This document shows positions 26,529 through 26,942 of a stretch of 40,540 nt of DNA, piece by piece. The notes beneath the pieces are model-generated. The model was not told the DNA's origin. It made no database searches and saw nothing but the letters and a program-made list of their open reading frames with translations. The DNA comes from an uncultured Acidobacteriaceae bacterium. Lineage in GTDB: Bacteria > Acidobacteriota > Terriglobia > Terriglobales > Acidobacteriaceae. The stretch's first letter is position 1. The number at the start of each line of letters is the position of its first letter. Where the stretch lies: NCBI GenBank assembly GCA_964408515.1, contig CAYOZX010000001.1:1-40540 (forward strand). Direction: 5' to 3'. The position numbers and the translations under genes are program-made.

Positions 26529-26942
26529 ATGACCCCAACGGATCCCCTCAGTTCGATGAGCAGCCCCACGCTTCAGTACATCGAGGTGCTGATCGCCCTT
26601 GCGGGCATCTTGCTGCTGGCCTACGCAACCCTCAAGCTGGGCCTGCCGCGCTTGCTGGGAATGCATGTGCCCAGCCGTGGTCCCATCAAGATTGTGGCCC
26701 GCTATCCTCTGGAACCCAGGAAGACCCTTTACCTGGTGCAAGCGGGCTCGCAACTTCTTCTGCTCGGCAGCTCGGAAAACCGGGTGCAATACCTGACCAC
26801 GCTCACGGATGAGAACGCAGCCGGGATTTTGCAATCCGCCCAGGAAGAACGTCCACGGAAAGATTTTCGCGCCTTGCTGAACCGGTTTCCAGGATTCAGA
26901 GAAAGCTCCGTATGCGATCCGCCCACTGCTGCAGAGGAATGA
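26529..26942 (+). CDS. fliO: FliO-family protein
   Basis: It has a single TM (IEVLIALAGILLLAYATLKL) followed by PIKIVARYPLEPRKTLYLVQAGSQLLLLGSSENRVQYLTTL and DFRALLNRF. These track E. coli FliO (LKISASASLGARERVVVVDVEDARLVLGVTAGQINLLHKL...DFQSVMKNLL). An ATGA overlap links it to sctR. The tracked ORF start (26448) overlaps sctQ and was rejected. Confidence 0.8.
   Translation: MTPTDPLSSMSSPTLQYIEVLIALAGILLLAYATLKLGLPRLLGMHVPSRGPIKIVARYPLEPRKTLYLVQAGSQLLLLGSSENRVQYLTTLTDENAAGILQSAQEERPRKDFRALLNRFPGFRESSVCDPPTAAEE

Follow-up and report, generated by a model that had tools for sequence, protein, structure and literature searches.

FliO long served as a clean distinction between flagella and injectisomes. 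Fabiani et al. (2017; PMC5542435) described it as a chaperone specific to flagella and missing from injectisomes: in Salmonella, FliO keeps FliP from being degraded and the FliP-FliR core complexes require it, yet the finished basal bodies do not contain it. A survey published in August 2025 (PNAS; PMC12403147) ended that distinction. FliO is, in the Myxococcota, "frequently encoded as a part of the vT3SS apparatus", both systems of M. xanthus among them, and it was also reported in non-flagellar T3SS operons from six orders of Pseudomonadota. The same survey describes FliO homologues in unrelated non-flagellar contexts (the Chlamydiia mqn operon, singleton genes) and FliO homologues with AMIN or LysM domains. 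Its datasets place FliO beside FliPQR homologues in many Acidobacteriota (Koribacteraceae, Bryobacteraceae, Solibacter usitatus), with three FliO copies in a Sulfopaludibacter and, in Dataset S2, a 91-aa FliO for Candidatus Solibacter usitatus Ellin6076; these acidobacterial proteins are not flagged as non-flagellar, and the text omits the Acidobacteriota from the non-flagellar cases.

As regards the secretion systems themselves, Abby and Rocha (2012; PMC3459982) detected no non-flagellar T3SSs outside Chlamydiae, Proteobacteria and Verrucomicrobia, and described an early-branching Myxococcales group without secretin, needle or translocon. Our literature search found no paper that describes Acidobacteriota or Solibacter as having a non-flagellar T3SS, and no experiment on a non-flagellar FliO. 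Here we analysed a stretch of 40,540 nucleotides from an uncultured soil Acidobacteriaceae bacterium (contig CAYOZX010000001.1, positions 1 to 40,540), referred to as the window, which carries a fliO gene inside a T3SS locus. The initial annotation of this DNA treated FliO as specific to flagella, a view that the 2025 survey has made out of date. Since FliO in a non-flagellar T3SS has already been reported, the acidobacterial locus adds a new example to a known principle. New here is the instance itself: a T3SS without a secretin that is conserved in Acidobacteriota and comes with FliO, a FliA-like sigma factor and an SctQ fused to an FHA domain.

The fliO gene, its product and the adjacent sctR

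The fliO ORF occupies 26529-26942 on the + strand (ATG at 26529, TGA at 26940-26942) and encodes a protein of 137 aa; databases call a 128-aa product from the alternative start at 26556. The 137-aa start is kept among relatives. The GC3 of fliO is similar to that of the neighbouring genes, and dN/dS values of 0.03-0.35 indicate that the gene is under purifying selection. A spurious ORF at this position is ruled out by the conservation and the dN/dS values.

A block-by-block alignment had led the initial annotation to propose homology with E. coli FliO, and the profile searches confirmed it. The Pfam FliO model PF04347 matched the window protein with an E-value of 1.5e-13 and 51 bits, above the gathering cut-off of 22, the match spanning residues 50-120 and model positions 19-89 of 91. 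The NCBIfam model TIGR03500 gave 49.8 bits (E 2.7e-13), just under its equivalog cut-off of 55.25, a result that indicates homology at the family level and by which equivalence to flagellar FliO is not certified. Pairwise BLASTP of the window protein against FliO from the annotated E. coli K-12 genome was not significant (E 0.086), so the homology to E. coli FliO is visible by profile methods only. In an hhalign comparison, a profile of 19 family members aligned with E. coli FliO over 104 columns (probability 92.5%, E 4.8e-7) and reproduced the proposed blocks, namely the TM helix, the I.A..L..R...V.....LLG......L..L core and the C-terminal DF.....L motif. Judged from its sequence, the window protein is a genuine FliO-family member.

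Searching 1.84 billion representative proteins with the 19-member profile returned 6,236 clusters at E<=1e-3, corresponding to the broad FliO family. Ten of these clusters were looked up; all are metagenome singletons, and the two that were examined are isolated fliOPQR operons. Isolated (fliN-like)-fliO-fliP-fliQ-fliR(-flhB) operons amid housekeeping genes were seen in three Planctomycetota-like contigs (L022, 8595-13385; L038, 10001-13749; L040, 10001-12622), and the FliO proteins of these operons have N-terminal extensions of about 100 aa.

The hydropathy profile of the window FliO has a single TM segment at residues 12-40, with a charge of -1 on the N-terminal flank and +4 on the C-terminal flank, and this positive-inside bias implies a predicted N-out, C-in orientation. 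The AF2 model, which is of low confidence (pLDDT 61), consists of a helix at residues 12-42, four beta strands between residues 54 and 92 and short helices. According to PMC12403147, the FliO core comprises one TM helix and a small cytoplasmic antiparallel beta sheet; the predicted structure of the window protein agrees with this architecture and would represent the minimal core, without an added domain. A search of the PDB sequences with the family profile returned nothing, there being no deposited FliO structure to compare, and a Foldseek search of the low-confidence AF2 model against the PDB was also empty. The C-terminal tail beyond the beta domain is conserved inside the clade.

FliO of the Salmonella and E. 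coli flagellum thus resembles the window protein in its profile family, in its size (121 aa vs 137 aa), in pairing a TM helix with a small beta domain in the cytoplasm, and in being encoded directly upstream of, and overlapping, a fliP homologue. The window gene differs in lying in a locus without flagellar structural genes, in the insignificant pairwise identity of its product to E. coli FliO and in the score below the TIGR03500 cut-off.

Only 19 nt separate the end of sctQ from the start of fliO, and the fliO stop codon overlaps the sctR start (ATG at 26939) as ATGA, an overlap that bears out the translational coupling proposed for the two genes. In all 20 Acidobacteriota loci inspected, the fliO-sctR junction is ATGA, TGATG, TGAnATG or a gap of 1-8 nt. 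A promoter and terminator scan between sctQ and sctR, which performed at chance level, gave no signal.

The sctR gene (26939-27829, +) encodes 296 aa; the N-terminus looks like a signal peptide, and about 65 aa form a P/A/Q-rich insertion. This low-complexity insertion, at residues ~150-215, is confined to the Terriglobales clade, where SctR measures 296-314 aa, compared with 224-264 aa in the other Acidobacteriota loci. On the NCBIfam models, SctR scores 217.4 bits with TIGR01102 SctR (cut-off 208.6) vs 201.7 bits with FliP (cut-off 217.45); among solved chains, the closest are those of flagellar FliP, at 138-163 bits, with SpaP at 124-136 bits.

The initial annotation had associated FliO with a FliP-like cleavable signal peptide on SctR, and this proposal stood only in its first half. 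The signal-peptide-like N-terminus is indeed present: that of the window protein (MKRLLCLGMLLWPQFAHA, with predicted cleavage before QTG) resembles that of E. coli FliP (MRRLLSVAPVLLWLITPLAFA, with predicted cleavage before QLPG). This pattern is shared by the Terriglobales clade and one further locus. The tie to FliO failed, because the feature is clade-specific: in six loci, of Acidobacteriaceae, Bryobacteraceae and Sulfopaludibacter types, SctR starts at a conserved NPVV motif without a signal peptide, and all six retain fliO. FliO and the signal peptide are therefore not coupled, and these six Acidobacteriota loci rule out a strict linkage between them.

Gene content of the T3SS locus

The T3SS genes lie on the + strand between 19.3 and 37.4 kb, in the order sigma factor, SctI-like protein, SctJ, SctL, SctN, SctO, SctP/FliK-type protein, FHA-SctQ, FliO, SctR, SctS, SctT and SctU. 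Downstream of SctU are small proteins of no assigned family, interleaved with three TPR chaperone-like proteins, as well as SctV and an FHA-TM protein. At the head of the locus (19299-20267, +), a FliA/WhiG-like sigma factor matches the Pfam Sigma70 r2/r4 domains and reaches 114 bits on TIGR02479, under the cut-off of 189.6; being most similar to FliA/WhiG (sigma-28), it is a flagellar-type regulator beside a non-flagellar system. The adjacent gene (20269-20820, +) encodes a 183-aa SctI/needle-family-like protein whose match to Pfam T3SS_basalb_I (27 bits) is under the cut-off and involves the C-terminal ~60 aa only. Its orthologues match T3SS_needle_F, and it has a long N-terminal extension outside the inner-rod/needle similarity.

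The inner-membrane ring lipoprotein SctJ (20848-21684, +; 278 aa) scores 151.8 bits on TIGR02544 SctJ (cut-off 161.95) vs 41 bits on FliF. The stator protein SctL (21961-22593, +; 210 aa) obtains 87.4 bits on TIGR02499 SctL (cut-off 78.7), and the ATPase SctN (22610-23947, +; 445 aa) is above the cut-offs of both TIGR02546 SctN (627 bits) and TIGR03497 FliI clade 2 (633 bits). Next to it are the stalk protein SctO (23950-24450, +; 166 aa; Pfam YscO-like, 52 bits) and a 204-aa protein with an SctP/FliK-type length-control C-terminal domain (24447-25061, +; Pfam Flg_hook 38 bits, HpaP 27 bits). SctQ (25073-26509, +; 478 aa) carries an N-terminal FHA domain at residues 88-151 (Pfam FliMN_C 59 bits, FHA 47 bits) and scores 84.9 bits on TIGR02551 SctQ, under the cut-off; the FHA-SctQ fusion is kept in all the Acidobacteriota loci seen. 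In classical injectisomes, the FHA domain is part of SctD.

Downstream of sctR, SctS (27840-28106, +; 88 aa) matches Pfam Bac_export_3 with 89 bits and scores 87.5 bits on the fliQ model vs 70 on SctS, while SctT (28117-28941, +; ~274 aa, with an uncertain start) matches Bac_export_1 with 175 bits and has a slightly higher score on the FliR model than on the Sct model. SctU (28973-30031, +; 352 aa) reaches 359.8 bits on TIGR01404 SctU (cut-off 358) and 341 on FlhB. SctV (32332-34500, +; 722 aa) obtains 792.6 bits on TIGR01399 SctV (cut-off 692) vs 682.9 on FlhA (cut-off 772), and its best plasmid matches are AscV proteins with 43-44% identity. The last gene (36942-37448, +) encodes a truncated SctD-like protein of 168 aa, composed of an FHA domain and a C-terminal TM helix at residues 144-168 (Pfam FHA 46.7 bits, Yop-YscD_cpl 26 bits). 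It resembles SctD minus the periplasmic ring-forming part, the Yop-YscD_cpl match being weak.

Five conserved ORFs of the locus have no Pfam match (30055-30456, 31058-31648, 34514-35383 on the - strand, 35764-36129 and 36576-36938); those at 31058-31648 and 35764-36129 show weak similarity to each other. These five are candidates for substrates, tip or translocon proteins, or regulators. Ser/Thr kinase genes flank the T3SS locus on both sides (12749-19018 and 37527-39434, both on the - strand), one of them encoding a 2,089-aa kinase-TPR-PEGA protein, and orthologous kinases also flank the loci of the relatives. The presence of two kinases and two FHA proteins suggests phospho-threonine control of the T3SS, as in some T6SSs. 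Further upstream, and unrelated to the T3SS, the window encodes a BlaR1-type M56 peptidase, an aspartyl protease-TPR protein and a beta-lactamase-family protein (333-6879), as well as an rve_3 integrase (1975-3006).

SctV, SctU, SctR and SctL are thus above the NCBIfam Sct equivalog cut-offs and below the flagellar ones. For SctN, SctS and SctT, the flagellar models score about the same as the Sct models or better, and SctR, SctU, SctV and SctJ pass or approach the Sct models; by these scores, the export gate looks intermediate, roughly equidistant from the flagellar and the injectisome proteins. None of the genes for FliF, FliG, FliM, the FlgB-G rod and hook, FliE or Mot was found in the 40.5-kb window, and FliF, FliG, FliM, FlgB-G and FliE were equally absent from 20 loci of relatives of about 20 kb each. 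A Secretin-domain protein (SctC), which could be encoded elsewhere in the genome, as could a needle gene or a flagellar regulon, was not found within the window. As far as the gene content of the 40.5-kb window can tell, the locus is a non-flagellar, secretin-less T3SS, in agreement with the non-flagellar context claimed in the initial annotation.

Comparison with other systems and distribution

For the comparison with injectisomes, we used the loci of Yersinia pYV (Ysc), Shigella pWR501 (Mxi-Spa), the Ralstonia megaplasmid (Hrp2) and a Bradyrhizobium plasmid (Rhc). These classical systems have homologous SctN, Q, R, S, T, U, V, J and L proteins and a similar gene order from sctN to sctU. They differ from the acidobacterial locus in carrying secretins, in forming a separate clade with 100% support and in having no ORF that matches FliO: in all four, sctR either overlaps sctQ or lies 4 nt from it, with no space for an intervening gene, and a family HMM run over the loci detected no FliO (best E 1.6). 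As positive controls, the same HMM recovered E. coli FliO (E 9e-4) and Acetoanaerobium FliO (E 4e-4). Note that the family HMM was used because single-sequence phmmer with the window FliO misses both of these flagellar proteins and is uninformative for injectisomes. The suggestion that described injectisome families lack FliO needs to be divided: FliO is absent from the four classical loci, but it occurs in the described systems of Myxococcota and Pseudomonadota (PMC12403147).

The latter systems share with the window a FliO-domain gene inside a non-flagellar T3SS; the window locus differs in belonging to another phylum, the Acidobacteriota. The Myxococcales systems, compared here by their description, likewise have no secretin, needle or translocon, and they have the export apparatus, the ATPase, SctJ and an inner-rod protein (PMC3459982, PMC12075869). 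The gene content of the window matches the Myxococcales description in PMC3459982, yet a needle-family-like protein is present, as are small ORFs without an assigned identity.

When one genome per species was scanned, 22 loci emerged, 18 of them in Acidobacteriota. These 18 belong to several families and comprise Terriglobia/Terriglobales, Sulfotelmatobacter, Acidobacteriaceae, Bryobacteraceae and Sulfopaludibacter; the relatives of the window system are Acidobacteriota (Terriglobia) MAGs, and the closest FliO proteins are 70-72% identical to that of the window. All 18 Acidobacteriota species representatives have an identical gene order in which fliO separates sctQ from sctR, and further metagenome contigs have it too; the contigs that bear the locus include some of 0.8-4 Mb. 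The remaining four loci (Phycisphaerae, Planctomycetota, Sericytochromatia) have operons of the fliN-fliOPQR type, probably flagellar ones. In three loci of relatives (L003, L006 and L030), frameshifts divide many T3SS genes and FliO is intact; the frameshifts probably reflect long-read assembly error and not gene decay.

In a neighbour-joining tree of SctN, R, S, T, U and V (2,013 columns, 200 bootstraps), three groups were each recovered with 100% support: the Acidobacteriota systems, the Ysc, Mxi-Spa, Hrp2 and Rhc systems, and two flagellar systems. The Acidobacteriota systems therefore fall outside the classical injectisome clade in this analysis. A tree of R, S and T only, with more flagellar taxa, placed the acidobacterial clade without resolution.

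Proposed role and origin of FliO in the acidobacterial T3SS

By analogy with the flagellum, we consider it probable that FliO acts here as a transient membrane chaperone or scaffold for SctR in a non-flagellar T3SS. FliO would stabilise the newly inserted SctR, the FliP homologue, as FliO does in Salmonella; it would help the SctR5-SctT1 core of the export gate to assemble, without staying in the finished machine. The function is taken over from Salmonella because our search found no experimental work on non-flagellar FliO proteins, and the chaperone role is supported by the FliP-like character of its partner, SctR being closer to the solved FliP chains than to SpaP. We infer that fliO has been kept since the flagellar ancestor and was not regained, and an ancestral or intermediate export-gate assembly pathway, as the initial annotation suggested, is a reasonable reading.

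Several features of the locus could also be expected of a flagellar export-apparatus cluster, perhaps partial or scattered, in which the gene would be an ordinary flagellar fliO. NCBI and JGI label the orthologues "flagellar biosynthetic protein FliO", flagella do occur in Acidobacteria (PMC3459982), the sigma factor resembles FliA/WhiG, FliQ and FliR are the better-scoring models for SctS and SctT, SctN exceeds the FliI clade 2 cut-off and SctR is nearer to the solved FliP chains. We regard this explanation as very improbable, given that the ring protein is an SctJ-type lipoprotein of 278 aa with little similarity to FliF, that SctV, SctU, SctR and SctL clear the Sct equivalog cut-offs and miss the flagellar ones, that YscO-like, HpaP and SctI/needle-like genes and three TPR chaperone-like genes are part of the locus, that FliF, FliG, FliM, FlgB-G and FliE were found in 0 of the 20 relatives' loci, and that the clade stands apart from the flagellar sequences at 100% bootstrap. 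The flagellar appearance of SctR, SctS and SctT, the most flagellar-looking components, could alternatively reflect a later acquisition of fliO in this lineage, for instance by recombination with a flagellar fliOPQR block; isolated, mobile-looking fliOPQR(-flhB) blocks are known in other phyla, and the R/S/T-only tree leaves the placement of the clade without resolution. Such an acquisition is unlikely, since the six export and ATPase genes form one coherent clade with 100% support, the synteny is conserved across Acidobacteriota families, and SctN, SctU and SctV are as intermediate as SctR, SctS and SctT.

It could also be that the FliO domain has been repurposed as a stable or regulatory part of the machine, for example connecting the export gate to FHA-SctQ/Ser/Thr kinase signalling. 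The homologues found in unrelated contexts and with AMIN or LysM domains (PMC12403147) suggest that the domain is plastic, the locus has unusual cytoplasmic parts (the FHA-SctQ fusion, the FHA-TM mini-SctD and the flanking kinases) and the C-terminal tail past the beta domain of FliO is conserved in the clade. The window protein, however, consists of the minimal FliO core with no extra domain, and its gene keeps the canonical position and the coupling to sctR, which makes repurposing quite unlikely in our opinion. The transient SctR chaperone remains our preferred reading of FliO in this locus.

More tentatively, we propose that Acidobacteriota may carry a widespread, vertically conserved secretin-less T3SS lineage outside the classical injectisomes. 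Such a lineage would unite flagellar-style parts, namely FliO, a FliA-like sigma factor and an SctR that resembles FliP and has a signal peptide in one clade, with SctJ, SctV and TPR chaperones of the injectisome style, and it would have FHA-SctQ/Ser/Thr kinase control of its own. If this is true, the flagellum-to-injectisome transition would have a second living intermediate, one from a phylum without a described non-flagellar T3SS, and the origin of the classical injectisomes would be marked by the loss of FliO.

The locus adds a phylum to the known distribution of non-flagellar FliO, with the gene under purifying selection beside SctR in 18 species-level genomes. It also provides a natural comparison for the question why classical injectisomes can do without a chaperone in assembling SctR5T1, and, within one locus family, SctR occurs with or without a signal peptide while FliO is constant. 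Finally, "flagellar FliO" annotations of Acidobacteriota in the databases may denote a non-flagellar system, which bears on the inference of motility from soil metagenomes.
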